Below, piece after piece: positions 10,901 to 64,000 of a DNA stretch of 64,000 nucleotides. Each line of letters starts with the position of its first letter. Position 1 is the first letter of the stretch. The DNA is taken from positions 27,514-91,513 of the IMG/VR virus record IMGVR_UViG_3300036768_001501. One strand, 5' to 3'. This stretch comes from a virus. Below the pieces are notes generated by a model. That model was not told the origin of the DNA. It made no database searches and saw only the letters and a program-made list of their open reading frames with translations. The position numbers were made by a program, and so were the translations under genes.

Positions 10901-13627
10901 AAGGCGTACGAATTGAAGCAAGATATTGAGGCCAGCAGGGGTAGTGCGTCTCTTGAAGCAGAGAGGGTTATTCTAGAGTCAGATATTGCAAGAAGGCGCC
11001 AGATGCTTGCGTACACTTCTGAGTCTAAAAAGAACCTTGCCCAGCTATCTGGTGACCTGTTGAGCGCAGTGTTGGGCGTGCAGCGCCCTGGTGATTTGCC
11101 TGGTGGGATAAAGAGATTTCGCGAGCTGCTTTTTGGTCTAGCCGGTGAAAGGCTAGAGCATGAAATGGCTTTGATTAGCAGCCAGTACGAGAGCCGGCTT
11201 ATGGAAGCCGAGCTTATGCCTGGGATGGCCGACGCCATTAAGCAATCAGCAGAATCTTTTCTTTTGAGCGCCGAAACGCAGGCTCGTTTATCGGCAATCG
11301 GGACTCTAGGAGGGATTGCTACTAGGCAAGCTGACGAAGCTAGCAGGCGCATTGCTGTTCGTCTTGAAAAATCTCAGTCTGAGGCACGTTTGGGCGCAAG
11401 CGCTTTGACGCTGGTCAATCCACTTAGCGAGACGACAGATGTAGCGGCTCGTATCTACGGTTCGATGTTGTCGCGTAGTGCCATTCAGGAGGCCGTTGCG
11501 TCTTTGGATCAGCAAATTAGTGAGTATGACGCTACTGCTCAAGAGGTGCGCAAGAGAATTCAAAGCATTGCCAGTACAGATGCAGAGCGCATTGCTGCAC
11601 GTGCAGAGTTGCAACGAATTGAAGAAAAGCGCAATGAGCTTGAGCGGCAACGAATTAATTTGCTCGCAGAAGGCAATGAGCGCTTAATTGAAGAGATTCA
11701 GCTTCGCATGGAGCTGTACCGTCGATCGTTTGCTGGCAGCATATTGTCAGGCCTCATTTCCGGTGGCCCGTTTGGGATGCTTCAGCCTCTTGCGCAGCGC
11801 GGTGAAGAGGCTTTGAATAAAGCCTTTGCTAGGCTTCTTGGTTACATTCCTGGCCCGCGCCGTGGAGTACAAGAACAGCGGGTAGAGGCCGAAAAGGTGC
11901 AGATCAATGTTTCTGGCGGCGATAGAAGGTACTCAATTGGCGGGCAGTTGATGGAAGATTTTAAGAACCTGCTTTCGCAGAATGTTGAGGAATCGAAAGC
12001 CGCTGAGGCAACTGGAAAGCAAGTTACTCAGGATGCCAAATCTCTTGGGAAAATGATCGCTGAAAAGCTTGGCATTTCTGACGCAGTTACCGCTTCTGTT
12101 GGTGCTTCTTATCAGGCATTTCGCATTATATCTGGTACTATTGAGACAGTGGATGAGATTCAAGATCGTATTCGCGCCCTGCGTAACCAGGTCGGCTGGA
12201 CGCTGAACCCAGATAAGTACGCGCAGCGTGCTATGGCCGAAGTGTTGAGGCCGTTTGGGCTGGGTGGTTTTGGCAAGATTATTGGCATGAGTAATTTGGG
12301 CAAGGGCCTTTCCGCCGCAGGACTAACTGGAGTTGGAGCTGGTGTTGGCTTTTTGGTTGGTGGACCAGTTGGAGCTGCTATCGGGGCAGGGCTTGGAGCT
12401 CTCTTAGGCGCGTTTGGGGCATCTGGGTTTGGCTTGTTTAGGCCGCCAACTCCAGCTTCGCGTTTGCGTCGCGGATTGCAGCGTGTTTTCGATGAGCTTG
12501 GCATTCCGCGTGATGCTCGTGGCGGACGTGGAATTTCGTTTATGCCGACGGAGTACAGCGAGATTACCGGAGAAGTTGGCGCAGCCACTGGTTTGTACTT
12601 GCGCAAGCGTTATCCTGGGCTTGGCGACTTGGGCCTTTTGCCGATTCGTATGATCTATGCAACCGCACAGGCCGGCAAGGCTCTTGGGTTGGCGCGTGAA
12701 GATACTGAGTACTTGGCCCGCTCTGTATCGAAGAAGCTCGTTCCATCGCTTGAGGCCGCTGCTATGGCGCTCGCTTCTCTCTATCGGAAGGGCGCTATCG
12801 GGCAGAAAGATTTCCTAAATGGCGCTGCTGGTATTGCTAGGATTTTTGGTGAGCTTCCGCCAGCGATTAATGCAGCCGCATTAGCTGTGAATGCATTTGC
12901 CCGCGACGGAAGCATTAGCTTCGAGCGCCTGAAACGTACAATCCAGGATGCGCAACAGGTTGTCTCTCGTGGCATTGCTGACGCCGTACGGCTCGGTGTT
13001 GAGTCAGGTGGAAGCGTTGCGCTGACTGGGCAGGCGATCGGTGACGCATTTTCTGATGCTTTCTTGCAGCGCGTGACCGAGCGCCTGATGCAGCGAAAGG
13101 ACATTGGTGACGCTTTGACGCGGGCTGTAGCTGAGGCTGAATCTGCTGCCGAGCTGCTTGCCGAGGGGCGTACTCAGGAATACGCAGTTCAGATTCAGAA
13201 AGTTATGTCCTTAATAGCCGAGTCGCAAACAAAAGTGGCTCAGATCATTTCTCCAGTGACGCAAGCACTCTATAGTGTTCGCACGACTCTTGGCATCGGT
13301 GCTCCAGGCGTTTATGCCCAGATTGGGTTCGGTGCATACAACTCCCAGTATATTGCCAATCAGCCCGCTAGGTACTTGTACAAAGATACTGGAGAAAGCG
13401 CTACTGCGTATGCGCCAAGGGCCTTCAGGCATGAAGACATTGAGAAAATGGGCCAGGTGATTGCTGGTGCTGTAGCAACAGCAATTGAACGTAGCAGTAG
13501 CGGCCAAAGGGTTACGATTAATGTCGATGGTGGAGAGTTCGGTACCGCTGTCAGCGGTGTTATGTACAAGCAGTCAAAGACTAGGGGAATTCAAGTTTCT
13601 ACACCACAGATGTTTGGGTTGGAGTAA
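1904..13627 (+). CDS. Tape measure protein, 3907 aa
   Basis: Very long and mostly helical/coiled-coil, Ala/Gly-rich hydrophobic segments (e.g. GAGVGFLVGGPVGAAIGAGLGALLG), a typical ...VTINVDGGEFG C-terminus, and position after G/GT. Confidence 0.85.
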   Translation: MAKREDISVELDVSVTEELNKQATSVTKISSAISSIKSGAQEAAGPIKQIATDMKSIATSSSDFVKSFGDLRKAFDELKKLNVSAATEKLKKGQEKIEEFTSKVRGAASELADLTNKISSATSGIVSASEGIKSVSTAVSSLSTSIERANAVIDAFASRARQLSEAVQSVANSVARISELEAKTQSAETRAKTETAKRRAARRRQPEPEPEPTPEPSRGGRRIVSRISAVGQYVRTEPEPPPRPRRGGARASAVQQYWHTAPMVTNVLPSDGNEKPEPPPRSRRGGSHAHTYVVRQYGYTAPMATNVAPSYKRTKQHGAHESTIGPGHYVHVPAVIYPSEKEPPRGYRYGFGFGEDPTKLYPIMSEYATEIMSHGLRRRIGFQPGGSEFVVREDAPLQMKQRLASPKYRAQLAQFLSRLESGRAPSAASGTRLYPTASASLSTPISMQAASLSTPISMQAGGVYAGPSDSGSGGGTIMGHASVITTETPRRRRGGRRPSLYRWMDVREAKRRFADLSDRPLDEILDLLKTKEEREALKKKTQAVQTGQFRILDLTNEVEDFFRAKREEELKKLPKKEREFRSPFYIPEEIDITEDPVMHAMLKVYKDLKKVPEAMHFVATRAREKLSGERVRQFREVLSQAGFSEEDIEKGRFHVPFVPLSLAADMSDRAALANIMLGGGGRKQAVISYALKHAPHALTPAGSAFTTAIFERGLGSELFSEAYLQAFAQARPETQTYIMKRLSSLPRSKEYQYAQRMRLFFADLYKRSPEPAVKLMRELGPAVESLSFSPQDIVSLWRGIRSAVPGGLEKVRTFTDFLKFVAPAQQKVWSGTFVGRTLVLSSAIRDLKEQYEKGELSKGNIEDLKSLAASVRLLSRSFRTPKERQLSQLEVGKRINDLIGKITGSKFYKVLPANVQRDIDHLISNTVAPMLGEPEHADIQQLFDVASDIRIKLFGRQAETVGQMLRRLSDHARKVLPKGEFRAFEKTLEEYRPAKGQKVSSDVVFKKIYQDVMYGRFGSEELSQKVRGVMSSEWHRVRTAHDPFEHARKHTGADIVGDELKDAYIKQRSLHAMTQDIFDILPGPSPYKYYGVRAPLFVSAEPYEEQAKIALVTRAKMKYLPAFKDKNFISGIARLYEIFGGVNPAKLIEKAESGNAIAALEAKMLLPKKGEDWLQHLGKLILSHRVGTSLDIFGRNINEAIRRQREEARAMRRRMRMMKKIEQEARRNDPFADKKLEAALEAEEPLKRVFSTMYGRAGVKLQEKQLERLVDLTLGSDFWAALRYQDALEVQKKPERFVMTMMELLGFPSASVVGMGKLPSYEQLVESLAKHGDAFVSNAIGISRDVERELQMLGLGNIIANEVSKASGTEEAAKKDRSRKKEVGAAELTPSESDASKIKRALRNKGTKLSKKTANIPLTAQELIEMAANLGKGRRSIPEGVDIESAFEQRKKNIAEFASLLGIDPKSQAGQKRLKGWEEYLEKLKESGNISQLVFPNVAEWLLASGVRGRPTPEVEEMNLRIASWLHEHGLLAGTSNTILRWRKFFEEQGGQVTNAIASQMIKPSKPSGPQASAVFTPMMAGGMYSGMPSGGMSMVGEGTYSTGPTMQFGQYSFTPYAESGSPRAMAAGGGGGKGGGGKGGGKKGGGFFGFFGGGGGDDDGGDDEEEKEPPKKQKRGRKKKSSEEEIDWTAPRSATGDKTIDFIVDRVTKMVSAIRKPELTMPGSQESFFREIVMPAIEVLNALGVSGKPVSGPLKGRAGKKLKNQLKQMGIDVEKMSDIDLGIIAGMPKDLFDYLKYLFKTTPATPRQRSRASESLEHITETAILQGKVAGGEVDLYPWQMQTIKRLASLLGPEVGQFAYGLFQMGNMFKTLTQASQLAASSPSPYLYEKRVTTGPAKQTYIKARRGKAMASAADLIAKAESQAEAFRMISEGASLLPPKDLAKAIETYMKTGDEEVFKQTVDSMLRRESAKTQYEQKILQKRNVVDELKRIELTKKAVEMIRSGKTKLRDVDDVVKYLEIKEEYGKEVGKQFYDELVKQQEALDALTKERKQRLEAQKKVDEQKRKTKEAIEKAKRAREEEILPSEAARQWQELAQFGKPLYFGRRRFTRQYFEREFGVDFARFIPTEEHIDALVRLRKLQAEAGSVAAAREAEKTFSALFATQRQREMMVDWKRRRREIEREQLEADRLQREMEINRQAMENIRLRKTPLKDLRLETQAVRIEMAARRAGYSEEEVRQRGASFRQTAIQYEREQTHFRRLKISWEELLRYMGRVFIGLQAFDMLRRAIDVATNVTFGFARQMQDLRIGVVSSVTALNRFTVGGRGAEFGMREQVQLAASETQGTIMLMKQYALKFGVPLDQLLEGYQTAAGVARQAGFTGPNVVKAISSLVAFSQAMNISMSTLARTIDNVFTGQRVAQVTLGRMLGLSERKVRELVAKGTFREELMRRLEPVAEAVQQMGDTSIRVQSARTLSAMMIYFNQFTQPVMDVVARGIGIAGAPFKSLANEMILKEALYPDRSFLSKSFDYGRDFMLPMGATIGSIVISRVITHAMRNAAMEAAKQVGGAATGGLMSRLIAYVLGAGAGAAGGGILRSAMARIAGFSLTRFIASRPLLALLSGALTSGGVLMPQILLTMLLTGGTLGLTYLLSRSRSQKLSGENLAEAVSIALNEEARKAVLENRGMDVVRSKMGIYGPTQGAPEARPSSSALYGLLPLPGPGYLHPSPTPTPTPAITATSTPTVTPTATPTVTPTSPPGGTAVDLSAEGGEPSKEVKSVSQLLDSAGKIKEKLEGDREQYEQSVLRGLAIPVEVMKVTQQHIQEGQNKLAALNALLERLRESSDANAQATANKLEGIVGSLSTALSQFSDTIYDAEELVKLETEALRSRAAAAKARGQLAIARAQYKAQRGFAVSPEEWRQAIETGRLAEIPLVEEELRRTLEALPDEFKSLSAPPSMEQMRDYIQRREEAKKAAQAGGNLSREYIDREARRLYSQYLKAYELKQDIEASRGSASLEAERVILESDIARRRQMLAYTSESKKNLAQLSGDLLSAVLGVQRPGDLPGGIKRFRELLFGLAGERLEHEMALISSQYESRLMEAELMPGMADAIKQSAESFLLSAETQARLSAIGTLGGIATRQADEASRRIAVRLEKSQSEARLGASALTLVNPLSETTDVAARIYGSMLSRSAIQEAVASLDQQISEYDATAQEVRKRIQSIASTDAERIAARAELQRIEEKRNELERQRINLLAEGNERLIEEIQLRMELYRRSFAGSILSGLISGGPFGMLQPLAQRGEEALNKAFARLLGYIPGPRRGVQEQRVEAEKVQINVSGGDRRYSIGGQLMEDFKNLLSQNVEESKAAEATGKQVTQDAKSLGKMIAEKLGISDAVTASVGASYQAFRIISGTIETVDEIQDRIRALRNQVGWTLNPDKYAQRAMAEVLRPFGLGGFGKIIGMSNLGKGLSAAGLTGVGAGVGFLVGGPVGAAIGAGLGALLGAFGASGFGLFRPPTPASRLRRGLQRVFDELGIPRDARGGRGISFMPTEYSEITGEVGAATGLYLRKRYPGLGDLGLLPIRMIYATAQAGKALGLAREDTEYLARSVSKKLVPSLEAAAMALASLYRKGAIGQKDFLNGAAGIARIFGELPPAINAAALAVNAFARDGSISFERLKRTIQDAQQVVSRGIADAVRLGVESGGSVALTGQAIGDAFSDAFLQRVTERLMQRKDIGDALTRAVAEAESAAELLAEGRTQEYAVQIQKVMSLIAESQTKVAQIISPVTQALYSVRTTLGIGAPGVYAQIGFGAYNSQYIANQPARYLYKDTGESATAYAPRAFRHEDIEKMGQVIAGAVATAIERSSSGQRVTINVDGGEFGTAVSGVMYKQSKTRGIQVSTPQMFGLE
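3218..3283 (+). repeat. Perfect 33-bp tandem duplication in the tape measure gene (ASLSTPISMQA x2)
   Basis: gctagcttatcaacccctatcagcatgcaagct at 3218-3250 and 3251-3283. Confidence 0.95.
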
Positions 13628-45827: not shown

Positions 45828-46287
45828 CGCTGCCTGGCTTAATATATACTACCGTGTTGTCACGGTAGTCAACCACCATGCCAACAGATAGCTGCCGGCC
45901 TTTTACGCGAAAGACTGCCAAGTCTCCAGCTTCTGGAAACTGCGTCGAGAACTGGTGCGTATTGGCCCACATAATTAGTGCCGCACTCGATTGCGTTGGG
46001 GCTGATTCGCCAACCAGCAGCTCAGTCATGCTGCTTGGGGTGAGCAGCTTACTATTAAGCATGGCTGTGAAGAAAAGGGTGAGACGCTCTGAATCTTTAA
46101 TCATGTTGAATACGTGCCCGTCTCCGGCCCACCTGTGTGCCAGCTTGGCATATAGCATGGCGTCTGGAGAATCTTTTGGCAAAGAAAGCACAGAACACAA
46201 CTCGCGCCGAAGCGCTGGCAAGTTCTTGACGTATCTGAAGAATCTTGCCGAATCTTTTGTTAGCTCAAGCACTTCCTCCGGCCTCAT
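45706..46287 (-). CDS. Hypothetical protein with a CHAP-like C-terminal pattern lacking the catalytic His
   Basis: PEAGDLAVF....LSVGMVV versus the CHAP pattern P.PGDIVVF...GHVGIV. Confidence 0.45.
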   Translation of the reverse strand: MRPEEVLELTKDSARFFRYVKNLPALRRELCSVLSLPKDSPDAMLYAKLAHRWAGDGHVFNMIKDSERLTLFFTAMLNSKLLTPSSMTELLVGESAPTQSSAALIMWANTHQFSTQFPEAGDLAVFRVKGRQLSVGMVVDYRDNTVVYIKPGSDGEERANATGLTFIRLGAGKSQGETAATQEAREAVQEGAS

Positions 46288-46455
46288 AGGGCTGTCCTTT
46301 TGTTGTCCCTGGTGGTTGTTTTTCCAGCAACTGCTTTCTTGATGTCCTCAACCAGATTGCGCAGGCTTTGCACTTCCTGGCGCAACTCTTGAAGCTCTTT
46401 AATCAATTCATCTTTGGTCTTTTTGCTGTCCGGCATGCATTCCTCCTTTTATCTG

Positions 46456-47697
46456 TCAGTGCGAATATGTTTGCTGCTTGGCAAAACCGCTTTCGCCAAG
46501 CTCTGAATGACAAGCGCTCAGAGTTTCTACAGAAACAATCGGCCTGGTGCGTGCACGTGGGGCAATGGATGTAGCCAGGGATTCGGCCATCGCCTTGGCG
46601 AGAAAGACAGTTTCTGACGCCGACTTACGAATAGTGAGCAAGACATTCTGCCCGTACGTTCTGCCCTTCGCATGGACGGGACAAAAGCTATCTTTCATTG
46701 TGGTTCCACGCTTAAAAGTAAGCACCTGAACTAGCGGTGCATTGCATACATCGCACGCGCCCTCCAACGCAAGAATCTTTTTCGGCTTTTTGGGGGCGAA
46801 TACAAAGCTCTTGGCGATTGCCGATGCCGATTTGAGCAGGGTTCGTTCGTCTGGCGCAGAAATCTCGGCAATACCACAATCGCCGTCTGGGTCTTGAGCG
46901 TAAATCTGCGGCGCGCCTCCACAAGTAATACATAGGTCGTCGGCTGGCCAATAACTAATAATCGTGCCAACTTTGCGATTCTCTGTATTCATGCCAGAAC
47001 TGGCGGTATATAGGTCATCCGGCTTGGCTGGGATGTTCTTGCAATTATAGACAATGATTCTTGCCTTAAGCTGCTTGCACTTTGTGCAGCGCAGGCTGTT
47101 TTCGGCAGCCATAACGCCGATCTGGGCAAAGAGAGATTGGTACATGCCTGCTCCATGAACCAGGTGGAAAAACAAACCGTGTTTTAGCGCCCTATGCAAT
47201 AATTCCATGATTTCACTCATAGTTTTCTCATCATTCATACTTTCAATAAAAGATACGCCAGTCGGGCATGGCGCAAGACGATCAACTACATGTGGAACGC
47301 TAAAGTCACGGTGGTCTTGTGTCCACGTGAATGTAGATGGCAAAGATATAGAACACGATGGGCATACGTTGCAGATGTATGGGGAAACGAAGTAGTCGAG
47401 ACAGATCTGGCATGTCTTGACCAGGTCCTTAATAGATTTGGCACTCTCTAGGGCTTCCCTAGCTGCCATTATAACCGGTTTTATCGCCTTGGCGGAGAAA
47501 TTAATTCCCACAATGGCAATCGTATGTTGGTTGCAATAATCCCACACGTCGGGTATTAATGCGGGACAACCTACATTGTGAGAAAAAACAGTGTTGTTGA
47601 GTTTCCGATCGTGCAGAAAAGTTCCGCACGTTTCCTCCGCGCGATTTCGGTCGAAACCGCAGCGACATTCGATTGTTGGTAACATTGGGTAGATCAT
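46456..47697 (-). CDS. Multi-zinc-finger hypothetical protein
   Basis: Several CxxC pairs; upstream TTGCCA-N16-TATAGT-N7-ATG. Confidence 0.7.
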   Translation of the reverse strand: MIYPMLPTIECRCGFDRNRAEETCGTFLHDRKLNNTVFSHNVGCPALIPDVWDYCNQHTIAIVGINFSAKAIKPVIMAAREALESAKSIKDLVKTCQICLDYFVSPYICNVCPSCSISLPSTFTWTQDHRDFSVPHVVDRLAPCPTGVSFIESMNDEKTMSEIMELLHRALKHGLFFHLVHGAGMYQSLFAQIGVMAAENSLRCTKCKQLKARIIVYNCKNIPAKPDDLYTASSGMNTENRKVGTIISYWPADDLCITCGGAPQIYAQDPDGDCGIAEISAPDERTLLKSASAIAKSFVFAPKKPKKILALEGACDVCNAPLVQVLTFKRGTTMKDSFCPVHAKGRTYGQNVLLTIRKSASETVFLAKAMAESLATSIAPRARTRPIVSVETLSACHSELGESGFAKQQTYSH

Positions 47698-47735
47698 GAC
47701 CCCAACTATATCACGGAAAGACCGGTTGGCAAGCC

Positions 47736-48008
47736 ATGAAGAAGCTATCTAGTTATATTAGATTATCCGACATCATTACAAATCAGGAAGAAGCCAACAT
47801 GGTCCTTCGCGGAGTCCGGCTGAATAAGCTATGGATATATGACGTTACCGGTAGGCGGGTTGACTATGTCGAGGCTCGGGCTAGGCTTGGCAATGATCCG
47901 AATCTTATTGTTCCAGGGGCGTCTTTGCGCGGATTTCGGGTCAAGAAAACCAAAATTAAGTATAAAAGCCCGAAATCCAGGGGCAGTATACGCGGCAGGA
48001 CTGGATAA
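47736..48008 (+). CDS. Small basic hypothetical protein
   Basis: 90-aa ORF divergent from 47697; its 3' end overlaps the first 41-bp repeat. Confidence 0.45.
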   Translation: MKKLSSYIRLSDIITNQEEANMVLRGVRLNKLWIYDVTGRRVDYVEARARLGNDPNLIVPGASLRGFRVKKTKIKYKSPKSRGSIRGRTG

Positions 48009-48079
48009 CCTTGAAATATTGTGGCAGTATACGCGCCAAGGCAAAGGGGCAGCGAAATTCCAGAGCAGTATACGCGGCA
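47971..48079 (+). repeat. Three direct repeats, core GCAGTATACGCG, exact 41-bp period (iteron/operator-like)
   Basis: Cores start at 47983, 48024 and 48065; each is preceded by GAAAT. Confidence 0.85.
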
Positions 48080-48161
48080 AGAAATATGATCTAAGAAGAT
48101 AGGCAGAGACCTGGATGCTTAGATATTATACCCCGGGCAACTTGACAGTGTGCTTTTGTAA

Positions 48162-48205
48162 AATGTCGGTCTTTTCGTCCACGATCAGAAAATTCCAGCT
48201 ATGCT
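48162..48205 (+). promoter_or_regulatory. Putative promoter/operator of the RT operon
   Basis: AATGTCGGTCTTTTCG (48162-48177) is identical to 54610-54625, followed by AAAATTC and a -10-like TATGCT (48200-48205). Confidence 0.55.
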
Positions 48206-48211
48206 TTGGTT

Positions 48212-48615
48212 CGCCTTGGCTTTGGTGCCAGAGCCAGCCAAGCGGCGTACGACAAATTGCGCAATTTTGCCGTACGCATGCGCGATAGCGGCGGTATTGT
48301 TACGCGCGATGTACTCGTCGCGGCAACCTGTATGACGTCGGGGGCAGGACCGACTTGCCCCCTCGCGCTACCGTGTACATAACAACATGCTTAGCTGCGG
48401 GTTACACCAGAACCACGCGCGATGTATTCGTCGCGGCAACCTGCGTTCCGTCACCGAGGCGTACTCGCGAAGACTCGGCTCAACTCCGCCACGGCACTTC
48501 GCTTCGCGAAGTGCGCTCCGCTACGTTGGGGCCTCGTCTTCGCTCCGTGCGCTCGCTTCGCGCAGCTAAGCATGCGCGCCCCGGTACGCGGCTAACTGCC
48601 CCGTACCGGGGCAAA
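48212..48615 (+). ncRNA. Structured retron-like ncRNA (msr/msd-like, internally duplicated)
   Basis: Perfect 14-bp inverted repeat 48386-48399 / 48561-48574 encloses two small hairpins and a ~100-nt interrupted hairpin (48455-48555). A 29-bp direct repeat sits at 48302-48330 / 48415-48443. Extra hairpins at 48246-48277, 48341-48361 and 48578-48612. Directly upstream of the RT genes. Confidence 0.75.
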
Positions 48616-48659
48616 ATCTTATATAACGCAACACAACAGAAAGGAGGAACAGTACATAT

Positions 48660-49697
48660 ATGCGAACAATCAATTTTGGGTACTGGAAAGAGGAAAATGG
48701 CCAGCGCGTGTTCGTTACCACAAGCGAGCATGCGCTTGAAGTGCAACATCAAGTAGCAGAGCGGCTGGCACTGATTGCGTACCTGCTACAGCGCTGCGGG
48801 TGCGGAATCGTAAGCGCCGTTAACTTACCAGAGCTTGGCGTGTCGGCGTACCAGATAGCATCAGAAATTGCCGTACGCGCCTGGCGCCTAAGCAAGAAGG
48901 TGGACAAACAAGACATAGTGGTTGCGCACTACAAGATGCATAACATGTACGACCAGCTCGATCTTGCAAGTGTGTACGCTACGTTAGAATTTACGGCTAA
49001 CTATTGCACGTTTGGCATAGGTATCACGAAAGATTCGCACGTTGTCGCGAAGCCGTTCAGCGACCGCAAACGCATGGAGCCATTGTGCCAGTACGTGGAC
49101 ATGCTGTACGGGATATTACGAAGGATGAATGCCAATGATCGTTGGCATGGCATTGCCTCTCAGGGCAATGAGGCTCAGTACATCATGCCGTACGATCCAC
49201 TGCGCGAGCGTTTTGTCGTTGCCGCTGGACTGCCTACGTCTCCGTACATAGCTGGCTTGTATTTTGCGTACAAAGCTTACAGCAACTTAGCGCAGTTCGC
49301 GAACGACGCTATCAATAAATCTGGAATCTTATACAATGCCGTGCACGTGCCTGGCGTGTCTGTACCAAGGAGACTTGGGTACGCGCAACGCGCATGGACG
49401 TGCGGTGACTATGGCAAAACGTACTGGAGCGAAATTTCGCAGATGCATTTCTTTCACTACGGCCAAGAGGCTGTACTGATTCATACGCGCGATAGCTGCT
49501 ACCTGCCGTTCTTCAAAGACAGTACGCTCAACTATAGGGTTAACGGGTACTTATACGGTGATTCGTTCTCGTTCTACGGAAACGAAATCACCGTAGGCAA
49601 TCCAGAAGTACGTGGCGACAATTCGCCTGTGCCAGCGTCTGCACACGTGGAGAAAGCAAAAACAGTGCTACGTACATTTGCAGTGATGGGAGATTAA
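48660..49697 (+). CDS. Catalytically inactive reverse-transcriptase paralogue (pseudo-RT)
   Basis: Colinear with the next ORF: RVFVTTSEHA/RIFVTTSEYA, YKMHNMYDQL/IDIKDCFNSL, AAGLPTSPYIA/GQGPCTSPHFA, FFHYGQEAVLI/YSRYADDILIT, RVNGY/NVCGF, KAKTVLRT/KAARVLKT. Strong SD AAGGAGG; intact ORF. Confidence 0.8.
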   Translation: MRTINFGYWKEENGQRVFVTTSEHALEVQHQVAERLALIAYLLQRCGCGIVSAVNLPELGVSAYQIASEIAVRAWRLSKKVDKQDIVVAHYKMHNMYDQLDLASVYATLEFTANYCTFGIGITKDSHVVAKPFSDRKRMEPLCQYVDMLYGILRRMNANDRWHGIASQGNEAQYIMPYDPLRERFVVAAGLPTSPYIAGLYFAYKAYSNLAQFANDAINKSGILYNAVHVPGVSVPRRLGYAQRAWTCGDYGKTYWSEISQMHFFHYGQEAVLIHTRDSCYLPFFKDSTLNYRVNGYLYGDSFSFYGNEITVGNPEVRGDNSPVPASAHVEKAKTVLRTFAVMGD

Positions 49698-49698
49698 T

Positions 49699-50796
49699 AT
49701 GCAGGATGTTGGGCACTGGACAACGATTCCCGTCGGTCGCAAGCAGCGCCGCATCTTTGTTACGACATCGGAGTACGCGCGCAAGATACAGCGCGATTTA
49801 GCATGGCGCTTGGCCGCATGGTCGTACTTCTTCAGGCACTGTTCGTGTGGCTTGTTCCGGCCTATCACCGCATATGCGCCAAAAAGCAGCGTACACGATC
49901 ACGTGCGCTTGCATATGGAATGCGCAGCGCGATGGCTCGATGCAGTCACGTACAAGATAGACATAAAGGATTGCTTCAATTCCCTGATGCCTATTGCTTT
50001 CAGGTCGTACGTGCGAGCTGTATACAGAACATTGCTCGGGTACGACTACGGACTTTCTATAAGCCAGGCAAGCGTAGTCGCACTTGGAAGTAGAAGCCTG
50101 TACGGCGGCGACAAGCTGCGTGATGCAATCTGGAGCACAATCATGAACAAGCACCATAGATTCTGGCTCAATTTCGAGTCCATCGTGAACAAGTACGGCG
50201 AGATCGAGAACAGAAAGGTTCAGGCGCTCTTCCCGTACTGCGATGACAAGCGCTTACATGTTGTTGGACAAGGCCCATGTACATCTCCGCACTTTGCTAA
50301 TATAATGCTGCTATCACTCGATTGTACCCTCATGCACAAGATACTTGACCACAAATATTCTGCCGAAGGATCCGTACATGAGATTGGGCTGTTCGGGCAA
50401 TGCGCCCACAAAAAGGCACAATTGCCTTTTGCGTACTCGCGGTACGCAGACGACATTTTAATCACCACGAGTATTGCAACGGACAAGGTGCTTGAAGCTA
50501 TCGAGTTTGCGCTTGCGCTTCACGGCCTGAAAGCCAAGTACGTCGAGCAGTACAAGCAGACAGACCGCATTAACGTCTGCGGGTTTACGTGGACGGTTGG
50601 CGAAGAAGACATCCGCCCGACGCGGCGCGTACGTAGGAGGCTACGCGCGTTGCGTCATATTCATAAAAAGTACAATGACACGAAAGGAGGGCAATTGCAA
50701 TGCTTTGAGCAATGGGCAGATGTGTACAGCGAGTCAAGGCTAGGCAGCTCGAAAGCTGCTCGGGTGCTAAAGACAATTATTGCAGCAAATGCGTAA
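49699..50796 (+). CDS. Retron-type reverse transcriptase
   Basis: Motif A KIDIKDCFNS, motif B QGPCTSPHFAN, motif C YSRYADD. Region-X-like AYAPKSSVHDHVRLH and region-Y-like VCG (cf. VTG). 365 aa with no maturase or nuclease domain. Confidence 0.9.
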   Translation: MQDVGHWTTIPVGRKQRRIFVTTSEYARKIQRDLAWRLAAWSYFFRHCSCGLFRPITAYAPKSSVHDHVRLHMECAARWLDAVTYKIDIKDCFNSLMPIAFRSYVRAVYRTLLGYDYGLSISQASVVALGSRSLYGGDKLRDAIWSTIMNKHHRFWLNFESIVNKYGEIENRKVQALFPYCDDKRLHVVGQGPCTSPHFANIMLLSLDCTLMHKILDHKYSAEGSVHEIGLFGQCAHKKAQLPFAYSRYADDILITTSIATDKVLEAIEFALALHGLKAKYVEQYKQTDRINVCGFTWTVGEEDIRPTRRVRRRLRALRHIHKKYNDTKGGQLQCFEQWADVYSESRLGSSKAARVLKTIIAANA

Positions 50797-50815
50797 GATG
50801 GAGGATACGTACGCT

Positions 50816-51949
50816 ATGCATGACCCAATGAAGGTTCTTCTTGAAGAAGCACGCAGCGGCGCGCGCGTACTGCTCGCTGGCCCACCGGCTACGGGCAAAA
50901 CTGCGCGCATTCGCGCGATTGCGAAAGAACTCGGGTACGAGTTCATTTGTACGCCGCTCCATTTGCAGGAGCGCGTTGACTTAAGCGGCGCAATTGTACC
51001 TGCTGGCGATGTTGCACGACAATTGCCGCTAGAGCTGATTGCGCGCTTGCGCAACGCCAAAAAGCCGGTACTCTGGCTGATCGACGACCTAGGAAAAGCG
51101 CCGATCGATATACAAGGCGCCCTCAAGTCGCTGATCACGCGCGCCGGCGAAGGCATGTCGCTGCCTGAACCCGTACTCGTGTGGGGCGCGACAAACCGAC
51201 CAGAAGATGCGGCTGGCGTACGCGGCCTCGATGAAGCGCTGCGAAGCGAATATGATGCCGCGTACGAAATCCAAGCGCCTATTGCGGTCGTACAAGGCGG
51301 CCAGGTGGTGGACGTTAAAATTCCCGTCCCGACCGAGCGCGGTACCGTGCCACTTGCGCCGTGGGAAGATGAAGTGGAAAACTGGTGCATGTGGGCACTA
51401 GATTATGCACGCCAGCTCGAAACAACCGATCCGCAGCGTGCGTACTGGGCCGCGCAAGTCGTGGCATTCCACCGTGTAACACGCGGCGAATGGTTGTACC
51501 GCTGGCATCACGTGCAGAATCCCGCAGAACGGTTCCCTGATTTCCGCTCGTGGCATGCTGTTATGAAGCTTCCGGAGCCGCTGCAGAAGTACGAGCCGAT
51601 TGCTGCCCGCATTGGCCATCCGGCAACTGCTGCATTCATTTCGGTACGCGAAGACATCACCAGCATGCCAACGCTAGACGAAATTCTCGCATCGCCGCAA
51701 ACAGCGCCTGTTCCAGGCGAAGGAAGTACTGCGGCAATGTACTTGCTCGCAACGCTAATTGCGATTTGGGCATCTCTCGATAACTTGCGTCACTTGATTC
51801 CGTACGTTGAGCGATTGCCGCGACAATTTGCTGCGCTTGCTGCCAAAGGCATCGCGCGCAAGTTTAAGGATAACGTTGACAAGCTTGTTGCGGTCGAACG
51901 ATGGAACAAGTTTGTTGACCGCAACAGCGACCTGTTCGACATCGAGTAG
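50816..51949 (+). CDS. MoxR/dynein-related AAA+ ATPase
   Basis: Walker A GPPATGKT, Walker B WLIDD, sensor GATNR; SD GGAGGA at 50800. Confidence 0.88.
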   Translation: MHDPMKVLLEEARSGARVLLAGPPATGKTARIRAIAKELGYEFICTPLHLQERVDLSGAIVPAGDVARQLPLELIARLRNAKKPVLWLIDDLGKAPIDIQGALKSLITRAGEGMSLPEPVLVWGATNRPEDAAGVRGLDEALRSEYDAAYEIQAPIAVVQGGQVVDVKIPVPTERGTVPLAPWEDEVENWCMWALDYARQLETTDPQRAYWAAQVVAFHRVTRGEWLYRWHHVQNPAERFPDFRSWHAVMKLPEPLQKYEPIAARIGHPATAAFISVREDITSMPTLDEILASPQTAPVPGEGSTAAMYLLATLIAIWASLDNLRHLIPYVERLPRQFAALAAKGIARKFKDNVDKLVAVERWNKFVDRNSDLFDIE

Positions 51950-51977
51950 CGTACAAACCGTTAGGGAGGTTATCTAT

Positions 51978-52727
51978 ATGGCACTAGAAGCAAAAAACTT
52001 CGTACTCGCGCGACCGCACGTTACCGTGTGGAACCCGATGGTCACCGACCACGAGCTAACGCGCGTCATCACGGAAACCACAACGATCCCGAACCAAGAG
52101 CGCGTACGCGCAATGCGCTCGTTGCGACAAATCGATTCGCACAAAAAGCTCATTGCGCTGCGTACGGAAGCCTTCACCAAATTTAACACGCGCACGTGGC
52201 CATGCGAATTCCGTGGGTTCCGCATCGCCAACGTAGTGGTTGTACCAGAATTGCGCGACATCATTGCTGACATACAACCGCGATTCCAAACAGCGCTCGA
52301 TGCGTTCTTGCAGGAGTACGAGGGCGCACGCCGACGTGGCGTCATCTCGCCAATCTGGCCGAGCGCAAACGCAGTACGCGACAAATTCTATTGCGAAGCG
52401 CAATTCTTGCCGATTCCGGCTGATAGGGAATGGCAAACGTGGTTCATGAACATGCGCGCAATGCATCTGGAGTACTTCCGGCAGCGCATTCTAGAGGCGC
52501 TTGATGATGCCGTACGCCGCTTGACGGTCAAAGGCGGCAAGCGCAAGACGGTTGCGCGCGTACTTGCAAGCGCGCTTAAGATGGCGGCGGATATTGAGCT
52601 ACCGCCAGAGCTAAGCAAGCTCGTACAAGAGCTAGATACCGTGGCCGACGCGGCCAAGAGCGCACCAGAACAGCAGCTATCTAAGATTGACATGCTCGCG
52701 GCACGAGTACGTGCAATCGCAGGATAA
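51978..52727 (+). CDS. DUF3150-like protein
   Basis: VTVW...TD, TWP...GFR, F...Y...WPS...VRDKF...LPIP pattern; SD GGAGGT; usual neighbour of phage AAA/vWA genes. Confidence 0.6.
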   Translation: MALEAKNFVLARPHVTVWNPMVTDHELTRVITETTTIPNQERVRAMRSLRQIDSHKKLIALRTEAFTKFNTRTWPCEFRGFRIANVVVVPELRDIIADIQPRFQTALDAFLQEYEGARRRGVISPIWPSANAVRDKFYCEAQFLPIPADREWQTWFMNMRAMHLEYFRQRILEALDDAVRRLTVKGGKRKTVARVLASALKMAADIELPPELSKLVQELDTVADAAKSAPEQQLSKIDMLAARVRAIAG

Positions 52728-52751
52728 CATTCTAACTAGTTAGGGGAAATC

Positions 52752-54476
52752 ATGCGTAAGCCAAACAAGCAAGAGTCGCGCCGCTTAGAGCGCGTTCTCT
52801 TCAAGCTATTATCGCATCCACGTACGGCAGCGATCGTTGGTTCTGTCGCTGGCGAATTACGTACGCGTCCATCCAATAAAGCCGATGGTTCGCGTGCATT
52901 CGAGTACTATGTCGTTGATGTCGGTATGGACAAGTTTATCGCTTCCGCTGACGAGAATTTTCGTATCGTACTCGGCTCGGAGTTCCTCCAGAAGGCTAGC
53001 ATCGAAGAATTGAAGTACGTGCTCGTGCACGAATGCACGCACATTGCAATGGGTCACTTGTGGCGTCTCTGGAAACATGCTCAAATTGATGAGCGCGCCT
53101 TCTTTATCGCAGTTGATTATGAAGTTTACCGGGTACTCAAGCCGCTGCATGACCAAGGTGTGATTCGCGAACCGGACGGAACGTGCGTACCGAAAGCGCT
53201 CGAAACTCCAGATTGGGCCTGGAATTTGTCCGCTGAAGAAATCTGGCGACGCTTACGCAAGCAAGCGCAAACGCCAAGCCCGCTGCAAGTACTTGCGCAT
53301 TCGAGCGGCCAAAGCAGAGACGAAAAGCAAGGCTTTGGCGATCACGAGAATGAAGATTCTGAAGTACCCGTAGACGAAGCGGGCGAGTACGGGCAACACG
53401 ATTGCGATAGCGAGGGCAATGTTTCTAAGGGTGACCCGCGTCGCAATCGTACCAGTACGCCAGGCGGCAGGACGCCAAGCGAACAAGCCAAGAGCGGCAA
53501 AGGCAATAACAACAATGAATGCGACGACGTTGCAAGTACGCCAGGTGGAAAAGACCCACAAAAGCAATCAAACCAAGCCGCAGATGGGTACGGAGATGAT
53601 GGCAACGGCGAAGAAGACGGCGACAATCAAAGTGGCGGCGCGTCCGAAGACTTGCTTGACGAGCTTGCGAAAATTGCACGCAGGCTTGGCCTGCAGCCGT
53701 GTACGTCACAGCAGAGCGCTGAAAATATGCGCCAGTTTGTTGAAGGCGCATTACAGCGCCATGCAATCTTAATCAAGATCGCAGAAGATAAGTCAGGCCA
53801 AGCGCAAGGGCCAAACGGCGGCAACGTACAAGATTTCTTGCAGCTCAATGTACGTGCGCCGGTTCATAACTGGCAAGATGAGCTGCGCGAATTCGTACAG
53901 ACGAACATTATTCGCCGCCCAGACTGGATGCGCCCAGCTAAGCAAACATGGGCAACGGGCGTGTACACGCCACGGCGTCAACGCTACGTACCAGGCACGC
54001 TTGTGATTTGCCGTGATACTTCCGGTTCTATGCAAGTGAAAGAGTTCGATCATATTGCAAGCGAGCTGAAAGATATTTTCGATATAGCTGCATGCGAAAA
54101 CATACAGCTATTGGCAATCGACGGCGACACGCGCGTTACGCAGACATTTATTATCGATAGCGCAAGCGTACTTGAGCAATGGCTGCGTGCACCAAAAGGA
54201 CGTGGCGGCACTGAATACGACCAGTTCATGGAGTACGTAAAGCAATTGCGTAACGGCGACGTTGAAGAATCCGCCATGCTGGAGGGCGATATATGCGGTA
54301 TGATTCTTTGTACCGACTTGGAAGTGTCACAACGCACAATCGATGCGCTTGAACCGCCGGAAGACATTCCGCTGATCTTCATGTACGTCGGTCACCGGAA
54401 AGAAATTCCAGTGGACGTTACGGCAAAAGGCAAGCTCATTAATGTTACTGCAGCGGTACGCGCTAAGAATGCTTAG
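52752..54476 (+). CDS. DUF2201-type metallopeptidase (HExxH) + vWA domain protein
   Basis: LVHECTH, an acidic/Gly-rich linker, MIDAS DTSGS, GRGGT and CTD. Confidence 0.88.
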   Translation: MRKPNKQESRRLERVLFKLLSHPRTAAIVGSVAGELRTRPSNKADGSRAFEYYVVDVGMDKFIASADENFRIVLGSEFLQKASIEELKYVLVHECTHIAMGHLWRLWKHAQIDERAFFIAVDYEVYRVLKPLHDQGVIREPDGTCVPKALETPDWAWNLSAEEIWRRLRKQAQTPSPLQVLAHSSGQSRDEKQGFGDHENEDSEVPVDEAGEYGQHDCDSEGNVSKGDPRRNRTSTPGGRTPSEQAKSGKGNNNNECDDVASTPGGKDPQKQSNQAADGYGDDGNGEEDGDNQSGGASEDLLDELAKIARRLGLQPCTSQQSAENMRQFVEGALQRHAILIKIAEDKSGQAQGPNGGNVQDFLQLNVRAPVHNWQDELREFVQTNIIRRPDWMRPAKQTWATGVYTPRRQRYVPGTLVICRDTSGSMQVKEFDHIASELKDIFDIAACENIQLLAIDGDTRVTQTFIIDSASVLEQWLRAPKGRGGTEYDQFMEYVKQLRNGDVEESAMLEGDICGMILCTDLEVSQRTIDALEPPEDIPLIFMYVGHRKEIPVDVTAKGKLINVTAAVRAKNA

Positions 54477-54478
54477 CG

Positions 54479-54654
54479 CAGTATACATATAAGCCCACGT
54501 ACAGCCGAAACGACAGAACAGTATACATATATTGCGCAGATACGCGTACGGGTACAGGCGCTCCGCGCCTAAAAGTACCCAGGGAGGGCTGGAAATGACG
54601 CGGTGCGTTAATGTCGGTCTTTTCGAGTTTTGACAAAATTCGCGCTGCTACCTT
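54479..54654 (+). promoter_or_regulatory. Regulatory region: two CAGTATACATATA boxes (40 bp apart), the shared 16-mer and a putative extended -10
   Basis: Boxes at 54479-54491 and 54519-54531; AATGTCGGTCTTTTCG at 54610-54625; TGcTACCTT at 54646-54654. Confidence 0.6.
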
Positions 54655-54660
54655 TAGAAG

Positions 54661-54808
54661 CGGCCCATCGGGACCAGCCTCGGCGTACACGCCGGTCGTA
54701 CGCCGAGGACCGTAGGTGGCCGGCAACCGCGGTACGCATACCGCGCGTGCGTACTGCGGGAGGTAATGTGCGCGGAACGCGGGGCGAACGCGGTAAGTCG
54801 CGTTCCGC
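54661..54808 (+). ncRNA. Three-hairpin structured leader or small RNA
   Basis: Stems 54678-54688/54698-54708, 54727-54739/54747-54759 (with G-U pairs) and 54772-54781/54799-54808. Confidence 0.55.
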
Positions 54809-54830
54809 TAGTAGCCCCGAAGGAGGTTAT

Positions 54831-55625
54831 ATGGGTACCAAAACGCGACGTGGTCGACGTGGTGGGCGGCGTGTGCAGGCCGCCCGCGCGCTCGCGGCGT
54901 ACATGGCCGCTGAGCGCGGCGTGAAAAAGGTACCGCCGCTCGTGGTACGCATGCGGGCGGCGGCAATGGAGCTCGCGCGAAGTCGCGCGCTGGAAGTACT
55001 CGGCGAAAAGCCGAGCGTAGATCCGCGCCGCGCGTACGACGCAACGTACGTGCGGCAACAGCGCGCGAAGGCCGCGCGCTGGGAGGCCGCGTACAAAGAA
55101 GCGGTCTCCCGCTTCTACCCACGCGCTCTCGTTGAGATCGAGCGCGATTTGAGCGCCAGCGTGTACGAGGCGCTCAATTACGATCGTGCCCTCCCGCGCG
55201 TCTTCGGCGAGATCGCGTGCGGGATTCGCGCGATGGCGTACGGCATCCGCGCCTTCGCTGACGCGATTGGCGCGGCAGTACGTCGCCAGCGCGAGGCGCG
55301 TCGCATTGCGGCTGCGCGCCGCGTACAGCGGCAGCGCGCTACCGAAAACCGCCTGTGGTGGGAAAGCTACAAGCGGCATATTGGCGTACGGGACGAAGAG
55401 CTTGTGGACAAGCTCTTCGAGGCGCTCGAAAAGACGAGCGCCGATGACGCGCATGAGATGCGTACGCAAGCTCGCGCGGCGTACGCTATCGGCCAAGCGC
55501 TGTTCACGTTGGGCAGCGCGCTTGGCATGACGGCCAAGCGTCGCGTGTTCAACGCGAAGGCCGCGCTCGAAGTACTCGATCGTTACGCGCAGCTCCCCGG
55601 CGCGTACGTGATGGGCGACGAGTAA
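54831..55625 (+). CDS. Arg/Ala-rich helical protein with an N-terminal arginine-rich motif
   Basis: SD AGGAGG at 54821; MGTKTRRGRRGGRRVQAAR. Confidence 0.8.
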   Translation: MGTKTRRGRRGGRRVQAARALAAYMAAERGVKKVPPLVVRMRAAAMELARSRALEVLGEKPSVDPRRAYDATYVRQQRAKAARWEAAYKEAVSRFYPRALVEIERDLSASVYEALNYDRALPRVFGEIACGIRAMAYGIRAFADAIGAAVRRQREARRIAAARRVQRQRATENRLWWESYKRHIGVRDEELVDKLFEALEKTSADDAHEMRTQARAAYAIGQALFTLGSALGMTAKRRVFNAKAALEVLDRYAQLPGAYVMGDE

Positions 55626-55665
55626 CGCCCGTCACGTCGCGCTACGTAGTTGCGCGCCATGTCAT

Positions 55666-55698
55666 AAGCCCCACGGCGCCCGCCGTGGGGCTTTTTTT
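55666..55698 (+). terminator. Rho-independent terminator
   Basis: AAGCCCCACGGCG / CGCCGTGGGGCTT followed by T7. Confidence 0.9.
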
Positions 55699-55709
55699 GG
55701 CGTACAGGT

Positions 55710-56051
55710 ATGCGTACAAGGTCGTTCTACTCAGTCGCGCTCGATGAGCGCGAATTGTTCGCCGCGTACGTCGGCGACCGCGTCGCATTCGGCAAGCTAC
55801 AGGCTTGCGATGGCGGCACGGGTCCGAAGTACGCGGCCCGCGTATTCGCCATTCCTGGCGGGCGATTCAAGGCGCGCCCGTTGGACGGCGAAGTACGCAA
55901 GCTCCTGGAAGGGCTGCGTCTCGTGGTAGACCGCCGCGACCAGGAGACGCTACGCGACGGGTGTCGCGTACAGATCACCGGCTATTCGCGTGTCGTGAAT
56001 AGCGTGGTGTTTGTACGTGTACACCACGACGCGGATTGCAAACACGCATAG
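55710..56051 (+). CDS. Hypothetical protein
   Basis: First ORF of a tightly packed small-gene operon. Confidence 0.6.
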   Translation: MRTRSFYSVALDERELFAAYVGDRVAFGKLQACDGGTGPKYAARVFAIPGGRFKARPLDGEVRKLLEGLRLVVDRRDQETLRDGCRVQITGYSRVVNSVVFVRVHHDADCKHA

Positions 56052-63271: not shown

Positions 63272-63790
63272 GTCCTCTGGCTGCGTACGCGGTACGCGTA
63301 TGGTATCAAACGATCGGGCAGTATATGCGCGCAAATGACGGTGTACGGCGTACTCGGCGCGGGGCGCATATAAGCAACCAGGGTGTCCGGCTTGTGGCTG
63401 GCTGGTGTGTCTATGCTCTGGTTTGCATAGCGTGTTTGCATAGTGCGTTTGCCTAGCGTGTATGGCCTAGCCGGCCTGCGTACTATATGAGCGGATGGCG
63501 TGGGTAGCGTTTCTTTGCGTACACCAAATTCTGGTTACGGGCCACAAAAGTGGGTGTACGCGGTGTGGCAATTATTCATATAGTACGCGCTTTCTGTCCT
63601 AGTGTCACAAAATTGCCACACCATAGTTGCCTTGACACGTGCTTATGTAGCATGGCTGTCAAAAACCCTGTACGCACAGCGCTGATAAGTCGCAAAAGGT
63701 GGTGTACGCACTTTGGGTGCGTGGCAAGAAAATGACGCTGCGTACATGGTTGATGTGTATCATTTTGGTACACACCGTCTGTCCGGCTGC

Positions 63791-64000
63791 GGCAGTATCG
63801 GCATAGTACTGACGGTTTGCTGCGTACGCGGTACGCAGGCTATGTTTCTGGCAGTATAGGCAAGATCGTGACGGTGTACGGCGTACAAAGGGGCCGGCTG
63901 CGACAGTATGTACGCGGCTAACGACGCGGCAGTATGTACGCGGCGGCGATGATGTACGGCGTACAACCGGCGGGACCCGGCAGTATGTACGCGGCGGCGA
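63791..64000 (+). repeat. Degenerate ~26-bp-period repeat array (CAGTATGTACGCGGC / TGTACGGCGTACAA), cut by the window end
   Basis: CAGTAT at 63793, 63852, 63904, 63930 and 63981; TGTACGGCGTACAA at 63875 and 63953. Confidence 0.75.

Follow-up and report, generated by a model that had tools for sequence, protein, structure and literature searches.

A candidate retron-like reverse transcriptase–RNA module with a conserved, catalytically dead paralogue in an uncultured phage of hot springs and microbial mats

Prokaryotic systems that pair a reverse transcriptase (RT) with an RNA, namely retrons and defence-associated reverse transcriptases (DRTs), are to our knowledge known almost only as bacterial defences, and the RTs that we know of in phages are either enzymes of diversity-generating retroelements (DGRs) or parts of retrons on temperate elements. 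Retrons, sorted into types I–XIII, combine an msr/msd RNA with an RT and an effector (Mestre et al. 2020, PMC7736814), and VTG and NAxxH motifs are typical of their RTs, with G and H the most conserved residues (PMC7736814). Among the retron RTs with solved structures are Ec83, Eco8, Kva2 and Ec86. DRT3 is a dual-RT bacterial defence composed of Drt3a (UG3), Drt3b (UG8) and a non-coding RNA (PMC13174585). Here we analyse a window of 64,000 nt, the right-hand 64 kb of a linear 91.5-kb IMG/VR virus record (IMGVR_UViG_3300036768_001501; ~90% complete by estimate), and a block within it in which a folded leader precedes two RT-fold genes and three further genes. On sequence grounds, we see an even chance that this block is a phage-borne, retron-like RT–RNA module of an orphan RT lineage.

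The plus strand carries, in order, the folded leader, a dead RT paralogue, an RT with a YADD motif, an AAA+ ATPase, a DUF3150-like protein and a DUF2201 protein with HExxH and vWA parts. The genes are as follows, in positions of the window:

48660–49697, plus strand: catalytically dead RT paralogue, 345 aa, collinear with the active RT
49699–50796, plus strand: active-type RT of an orphan retron-like lineage, 365 aa, with DIKDCF, QGPCTSP and YSRYADD
50816–51949, plus strand: AAA+ ATPase, N4 gp24-like (Pfam; phrog_1297, E = 6e-32)
51978–52727 (ATG at 51978), plus strand: DUF3150-like phage protein, 249 aa (protein atlas)
52752–54476, plus strand: HExxH metallopeptidase-like and vWA protein, N4 gp25-like (DUF2201_N and DUF2201; phrog_1314, E = 5e-37)

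The intergenic gaps measure 1, 19, 28 and 24 nt. Inside the block the genes are not separated by any terminator, the first clean one on the plus strand being at 55666–55693 (terminator-like sites are not enriched, with 11 seen against 11.5 expected). The five genes and the leader form one apparent operon and are probably transcribed together. An earlier note, made from the letters alone, had described viral DNA with two collinear RT-fold genes 1 nt apart, followed on the same strand by genes with gaps under 30 nt and no evident terminator. The origin of the record and the measured distances bear out this description, and the two RT-fold proteins are paralogues (BLASTP E = 3e-9).

The catalytic motifs of the RT are all intact. 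The eight PADLOC models that match it best are all of retron RTs, headed by RT_III-A (E = 2e-14), and models of acquisition-associated CRISPR RTs and of DRTs trail at E = 4e-7 or weaker. The best NCBIfam match is retron_St85 (E = 8e-12), ahead of group II (E = 4e-6), and profile matches in the PDB are to a type I-A retron RT, Ec83, Eco8 and Kva2. In region Y, the VTG of structure 9n69 and of Ec83 corresponds in the alignment to VCG in proteins P0002 and P0006 and to CTG in P0005; in region X, NALLH (NAxxH) corresponds to HVxxH. Retention is limited to the most conserved residue of each signature motif (G and H). These matches point to an orphan lineage whose nearest known kin would be the retron RTs.

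The upstream protein aligns to the RT over 276 columns (hhalign 94%, E = 1.3e-7). The aspartate of motif A is replaced (YKMHNMY), as is the YADD motif (HYGQE), and an N-terminal R-FVTTSE, GLPTSPYIAGL and a C-terminal G-x-x-TVG are retained. Orthologues at 90% and 68% identity are exactly 345 aa long with HYGQE invariant, which excludes a decaying pseudogene and agrees with the earlier note, in which the first gene had been called a dead RT. The N-terminus, GLPTSPYIAGL and the C-terminus are nearly invariant in the relatives. Dead and active RT co-occur on the same four contigs, and the final codons of the dead RT gene contain the Shine-Dalgarno sequence of the active one, a position indicating that the two are translationally coupled. 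The protein atlas returned nothing for the dead RT, and a protein search with its profile found no distant partner. Two JGI relatives, P0016 (dead RT) and P0004 (active RT), are 68% and 81% identical to the respective window proteins, so that, provided a single phage is the source of both, the dead copy evolves faster than the RT. The changes in P0016 are concentrated in residues 100–170.

Upstream of the RT pair lies a gene-free leader of ~490 nt (about 48170–48659), somewhat longer than the ~400 nt put forward in the earlier note, whose view of it as structured and non-coding holds. The fold of 48200–48660 reaches −205.7 kcal/mol, against −171.4 ± 5.6 for shuffled sequences (z = −6.2; none of 100 shuffles as good). 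Small open reading frames (ORFs) across the leader are interrupted in relatives, where indels of 1 or 2 nt fall at 48401, 48403, 48408/48410 and 48574, and we therefore take it to be non-coding. Its parts are:

48184–48301, plus strand: 5′ part of the leader with two local hairpins (z = −1.5), poorly conserved
48302–48362, plus strand: unit 1, with hairpin H1 (7-bp stem, loop UACU), a conserved 3′ flank and a short G+C hairpin at 48340–48362
48386–48399, plus strand: left arm of the closing stem (inverted repeat), a2-like, with unpaired G residues after it
48415–48452, plus strand: unit 2, a second H1 (loop UAUU), an msr-like candidate for recognition by the RT
48455–48555, plus strand: long imperfect hairpin of ~100 nt, an msd-like candidate template (fold compared with shuffles)
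48561–48574, plus strand: right arm of the closing stem (inverted repeat), a1-like
48578–48612, plus strand: 14-bp G+C hairpin, very stable, located after the cassette and before the first gene (−31.2 kcal/mol; z = −5.95 for 48575–48615)

The two arms form a perfect 14-nt inverted repeat, for which we roughly estimate a chance expectation of ~7e-4 per 1 kb, and they close an element of 189 nt that ends 86 nt upstream of the first gene. A tiny hairpin, the 7-bp H1 hairpin and the imperfect ~100-nt hairpin lie inside this stem. Compared with shuffled sequences, both the sub-element 48380–48580 (z = −5.0) and the long hairpin itself (48455–48560; z = −4.4, none of 200 shuffles as good) fold significantly. 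A 38-nt direct repeat at 48302 and 48415, 113 nt apart, underlies the two H1 units; 29 nt of it match with one mismatch, in the loop. The leader thus has the layout by which a retron RNA is recognised, with a1/a2 repeats enclosing an msr hairpin and a long msd hairpin beside an RT, and appears to contain a retron-style msr/msd-like cassette. The G+C hairpin at 48578–48612 is possibly a processing or stabilising element. No U-tract follows it, and the terminator search does not call it. A search of 46000–56000 against Rfam gave no match at E ≤ 1, so that none of the known RNA families accounts for the leader. A CRISPR-like array was rejected because the 113-nt spacing is too long, and hairpin promoters of the N4 type for a virion RNA polymerase because H1 is confined to the leader and a 3907-aa ORF has no match to such a polymerase.

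The conservation of the block was assessed by aligning contigs of three hot-spring runs (from two studies) and one microbial-mat run to 47000–55000, a comparison that yielded ~1250 differences between relatives and window. Two hot-spring contigs, 9,244 and 13,296 nt long, cover most of the block at ~90% identity, apart from a few short stretches too diverged to align, and the arrangement is therefore a stable one within a small phage lineage. The whole block is syntenic in relatives, a pattern that the earlier note had proposed to search for, and the RNA cassette is collinear in three hot-spring relatives at ~90% identity. The first ~85 nt of the leader have diverged (48184–48267 cannot be aligned at ≥80%). 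In the right arm of the closing stem, a 2-nt deletion at 48574, the last base of the arm, is common to all four related runs, and no further indel occurs there among the differences listed.

The layout of the leader, the motifs retained in both proteins and their conservation best support a reading in which the long hairpin would be the template of the RT and the dead paralogue its nucleic-acid-binding partner. A transcript beginning near 48170 would carry the structured leader, in which the 14-bp stem (48386–99 with 48561–74) would close a cassette of H1 and the ~100-nt hairpin. The active RT would bind this RNA and copy the long hairpin into single-stranded DNA (ssDNA); priming may occur in retron fashion at a G that directly follows the left arm. 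The dead paralogue, which keeps finger, template-grip and thumb-like motifs and has lost all catalytic acids, is probably a non-catalytic RNA- or DNA-binding partner of the RT, comparable to HIV p51 or to the second of the two DRT3 RTs. The module is probably co-transcribed with the gp24/gp25-type ATPase, the DUF3150-like protein and the Zn-peptidase/vWA protein, and this trio may act on or with the RT–nucleic-acid complex, a coupling that is the weakest link of the proposal. The module may serve counter-defence, keep out other phages or take part in replication; the first two of these, together with a place in an early/anti-host arm, had been suggested in the earlier note.

Several results weigh against this reading, and they concern the RT itself, its association with the trio and the nature of the leader. 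The RT scores 45 bits on the NCBIfam model retron_St85_RT, whose cut-off is 235. Its best PADLOC retron model gives 51 bits, against 140–620 bits for ten control RTs, which are its nearest neighbours outside the family, all of them true retron RTs, and which reach these scores even on models of other types. In a tree without an outgroup, where a sister position to retrons and a position among them look the same, four active RTs of the family form their own clade (SH-like approximate likelihood ratio test, SH-aLRT, 86) opposite 20 retron RTs (SH-aLRT 95), and a very long branch leads to the dead paralogues. AlphaFold models are poor, with a mean predicted local distance difference test (pLDDT) of 52 for the RT and 32 for the other; Foldseek with the RT model finds almost only RT-type polymerases, at template modelling (TM) scores of 0.3–0.4 that do not discriminate between RT classes, and this low-quality model resembles DRT9, DRT2 and retron RTs equally.

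We call the RT retron-like, and not a retron, because it fails all retron thresholds and because it forms a clade apart from retron RTs. The retron-like system proposed in the earlier note is therefore retained as to the RT and the msr/msd-like layout of the RNA and given up as to membership of a retron family; the phylogenetic placement suggested there came out with the RT family outside the clade of the 20 sampled retron RTs, in that tree without an outgroup.

Compared with the described systems, the locus shares with retrons an RT of ~350 aa with YSRYADD, VTG-like and NAxxH-like motifs in which the most conserved residue, G or H, is retained, and an upstream RNA with a closing stem and hairpins. 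It differs from them in that its RT scores 3–10 times below real retron RTs and stands in a separate clade, that the operon includes a dead RT paralogue and a hairpin unit repeated two to three times, and that the system is viral, with no bacterial relatives and no recognisable toxin. None of the retron types has AAA+, DUF3150 or DUF2201 partners (PMC7736814), and the terms vWA and MoxR do not appear in that classification, in line with the earlier remark that the composition matches no described type. In the literature library searched, no paper links DUF2201 or MoxR with retrons, and we found none on a phage RT with a dead paralogue or on an RT with MoxR/DUF2201 partners. DRT3 likewise encodes two RT-fold proteins with a non-coding RNA, and cooperation of its subunits is proposed (PMC13174585); both of its RTs are active and belong to different UG classes, whereas here the two are paralogues and one lacks the catalytic acids. 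Membership of DRT3 is rejected, since the RT scores 20 bits on Drt3a (E = 7.5e-5), no Drt3b is found among the 25 of 31 PADLOC families listed, and the first protein is dead. A DGR is rejected because 47700–48660 has no second copy in the 91.5-kb genome beyond motifs of at most 16 nt, and a group II intron because the Rfam search was empty and the RT scores 26 bits on TIGR04416, whose cut-off is 300. No described RT system has this make-up, and the block lies outside the defined retron types, DRT3, DGRs and group II introns.

The three genes downstream of the RT pair have relatives of their own. The ATPase begins at ATG 50816, not at 50780, and matches PF00004 with 32.7 bits, AAA_5 with 19.3 and AAA_3 with 17.7; the label MoxR given to it in the earlier note therefore stands for its AAA+ part and is weak for the MoxR part. 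Its phage relatives amount to 42 records only, those listed being ~70–76 kb long and for the most part N4-like phages of Pseudomonas; one carries the annotation N4 gp24-like. Among the defence proteins of PADLOC, the ATPase has weak matches to IetA only, at most 18 bits; the dead RT, the DUF3150-like and the vWA proteins have none. The DUF3150-like protein has no Pfam match even at E ≤ 10, PF11348 included, and this label now depends on the protein atlas (feature score 0.94, TM 0.75), in which the matching clusters are mostly from Uroviricota and have PF11348 in 15–40% of their members. The HExxH–vWA protein passes the Pfam cut-offs, with DUF2201_N at 45.6 bits against a cut-off of 23.2 and DUF2201 at 33.4 against 26.4. 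The vWA protein is also collinear with the gp25-like protein of phage Ab09 in both its HExxH and vWA parts (E = 2e-6). Couples of MoxR and vWA proteins have been described before (Kaur et al. 2020, PMC7159879).

In Ab09 the order is gp24-like gene, small ORF, gp25-like gene, and no RT is found there. By homology and gene order, the pair of ATPase and DUF2201 protein is a phage N4 gp24/gp25-type module, with a homologous ATPase and vWA-peptidase in the same order and a small gene between them, as here. In Ab09, in Agrobacterium phage Atu_ph07, which has the same ATPase/vWA pair, and in the sampled Bacillota, this module comes with no RT or structured RNA, whereas here it follows 19 nt after the RT pair.

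The block is bracketed by repeated sites, which we presume to be regulatory:

47971–48082, plus strand: three GAAA-N9-CAGTATACGCG repeats with 41-nt spacing, presumed to be associated with an operator or promoter, upstream of the leader
48163–48178, plus strand: AATGTCGGTCTTTTCG motif, with an exact repeat at 54611; presumed promoter or transcript-start element
54479–54626, plus strand: second regulatory cassette of two CAGTATAC repeats and AATGTCGGTCTTTTCG, the right boundary of the block

GAAA-N9-CAGTATAC matches five times in the genome, against 0.48 expected, three copies lying at 47984–48066 and two at 54479 and 54519, spaced 40–41 nt; at both sites AATGTCGGTCTTTTCG follows ~95 nt downstream of the last repeat. 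The two identical cassettes bracket exactly the stretch from the leader to the vWA gene. A sigma-70 promoter at 48100–48129 was considered and set aside, as it agrees in 9 of 12 positions only and such sites are not enriched. A plus-strand ORF of 90 aa (47736–48008) overlaps the first CAGTATAC repeat and aligns without gaps in the relatives; it has no family match and may encode a small regulator. Towards the right-hand end of the record, 63900–63944 holds 3.4 tandem copies of a 14-nt repeat, GCGGCAGTATGTAC, and 63318–63329 a copy of GCAGTATACGCG with one mismatch. Both resemble the CAGTATAC sites, and one DNA-binding protein may act at those sites and at the genome end.

The best of the competing explanations holds that two independent modules stand side by side, a self-contained RT/RNA element and an ordinary gp24/gp25-type trio that share a promoter only, which we regard as possible at clearly less than even odds. 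The ATPase/vWA pair stands alone in Schitoviridae and Atu_ph07. Its base rate was taken from 401 Bacillota genomes searched for DUF2201_N, 28 of which were positive (~7%); the 29 loci obtained, up to 20 kb long, were searched with 18 diverse RT queries. A MoxR-like ATPase adjoins DUF2201 in 26 of the 29 loci, and an RT within 10 kb in none. Given the N4-like phage, Atu_ph07 and these 29 loci, all free of RTs, the pair is a self-standing module. Relatives of the window, moreover, tolerate an insertion of 991–992 nt, with room for one gene, inside the trio (at window 52720–52751, between the DUF3150-like and vWA genes), and the phage RTs of LY01 and L018 lack the ATPase/vWA pair. The tight spacing, the absence of an internal terminator and the identical cassettes that bracket exactly this block speak against separate modules.

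So does a second, independent joining of an RT, a MoxR-like ATPase and DUF2201. Among ~18 independent RT loci gathered purely by RT similarity, two related contigs (L006 and L007) carry an overlapping operon that encodes a retron-type RT fusion, an N6/N4 DNA methylase, an unknown protein, a MoxR-like AAA protein (AAA_5/AAA_3) and, last, a DUF2201_N plus DUF2201 peptidase/vWA protein, with two long conserved hairpins upstream of the RT. The operons span L006:902–7728 and L007:796–7529, with an RT fusion of 993 aa and an unknown protein of 313 aa. As in the window, an RT with upstream hairpins shares an operon with a MoxR-like ATPase and DUF2201. The RT of these contigs is a bona fide retron-type enzyme (226 bits on RT_XIII) fused to an N-terminal part of 700 aa, which the window RT is not, and they differ further from the window block in having no dead paralogue, no DUF3150-like gene and another gene order. 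With DUF2201 in ~7% of the sampled genomes, a DUF2201 neighbour is expected at ~2e-4 per random locus (a rough estimate from 28/401 genomes), so that one such neighbour in ~18 RT loci is far above chance. The link between RT and ATPase/DUF2201 is real but a minority arrangement, and a functional coupling of the RT module with the trio in this window, though plausible, falls a little short of an even chance. The RT of the Staphylococcus jumbo phage LY01 (L026:5328–6614) is a retron-type enzyme of 500 aa preceded by ~1 kb with one small annotated ORF; this upstream stretch may be its template RNA. The earlier note had counted the ATPase, DUF3150 and vWA genes as parts of one retron system. The genes are indeed there, yet they belong to a gp24/gp25-type module that occurs without an RT, and their membership in one retron system is a possibility at most.

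The leader raises a second alternative, in which the folded region is a regulatory or DNA-level element (a 5′ untranslated region, protein-binding hairpins or an origin-like site) and not a template, the RT acting on another substrate or without a template. The minus strand folds nearly as well (z = −5.0), which makes a DNA-level element possible. It also counts against the module reading that unit 1 alone lacks significant structure (z = −1.1). The number of H1 units varies, with three in relatives and two in the window, for which reason the idea of one RNA unit per RT paralogue fails as well. The region adjoins a divergent junction beside repeated sites of protein-binding type, with minus-strand genes to its left (among them a helicase, phrog_62) and all genes to its right on the plus strand; the lack of an Rfam match fits this alternative too, and DRTs include RTs that work without a template or with a protein as primer. 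Yet the perfect long-range 14-bp stem, enclosing a small and a long hairpin directly upstream of a retron-like RT, matches the way in which retrons are laid out (PMC7736814). A U–G wobble in the stem of H1 pairs on plus-strand RNA only, being an A–C mismatch on the other strand, and therefore favours plus-strand RNA. H1 occurs nowhere in the 91.5-kb genome other than at 48302 and 48415, and the cumulative GC skew makes no turn here. Taken with this evidence, the alternative is improbable.

The RT lineage is rare. A word-indexed search of 5.8 billion proteins returned three relatives of the RT, and a HMMER pass over 1.84 billion representative proteins eleven matches, three of them strong: a fragment at 81% identity, P0006 at 36% and P0005 at 31–45%. 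Neither RT matches anything in 50,697 records of isolated phages. A scan of 185,579 species genomes found none of the lineage and gave ordinary retron RTs only, as did a metagenome scan. Pattern scans of IMG/VR with the RT family, P0005, P0006 and ATPase proteins and with H1 and closing-stem DNA found no relative. The lineage is apparently confined to uncultured phages, and its great distance from bacterial retron RTs argues against a recent capture. A classical abortive-infection retron, which the phage would carry to exclude its rivals and whose toxic effector would be either the dead RT or the peptidase, is very doubtful, for although temperate phages (P2-like and Klebsiella phages) carry retron-type RTs and the strongest sequence matches of the RT are to retron RTs, the lineage is absent from those species genomes and isolated phages, and PADLOC recognises no toxin domain in the dead RT, the DUF3150-like or the vWA protein.

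The source is an uncultured phage of hot springs and microbial mats. The 3907-aa ORF (window 1904–13627) has as its best match a weak, tape-measure-like one (phrog_167, E = 1e-5); it has no Pfam match, and tblastn gave no match to a virion RNA polymerase. The next ORF, of 1695 aa, has no match at all. We do not call the phage N4-like, because the 3907-aa ORF is not demonstrably a virion RNA polymerase of the N4 type.

The retron-like RT–RNA module favoured here can be extended to a bolder proposal. During infection, an active/dead RT heterodimer would produce ssDNA from one or several tandem retron-like units, and the nucleoprotein formed would act together with the AAA+/vWA pair, as a virus-specific machine that disarms host immunity or drives a step of replication and as part of a wider, undescribed class of RTs with MoxR-like and DUF2201 partners. 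We consider this unlikely as a whole, but if it were true, a retron-like system would serve the attack of a phage and not the defence of a cell. The conserved dead twin in any case offers a natural system for studying RT subunits that lack catalysis. The role of the gp24/gp25-type pair in N4-like phages is absent from the annotations examined here, and the block may help to reveal the function of that module if its RNA is copied. Should the leader RNA be copied into DNA, warm habitats would have yielded a new and compact enzyme for writing ssDNA.

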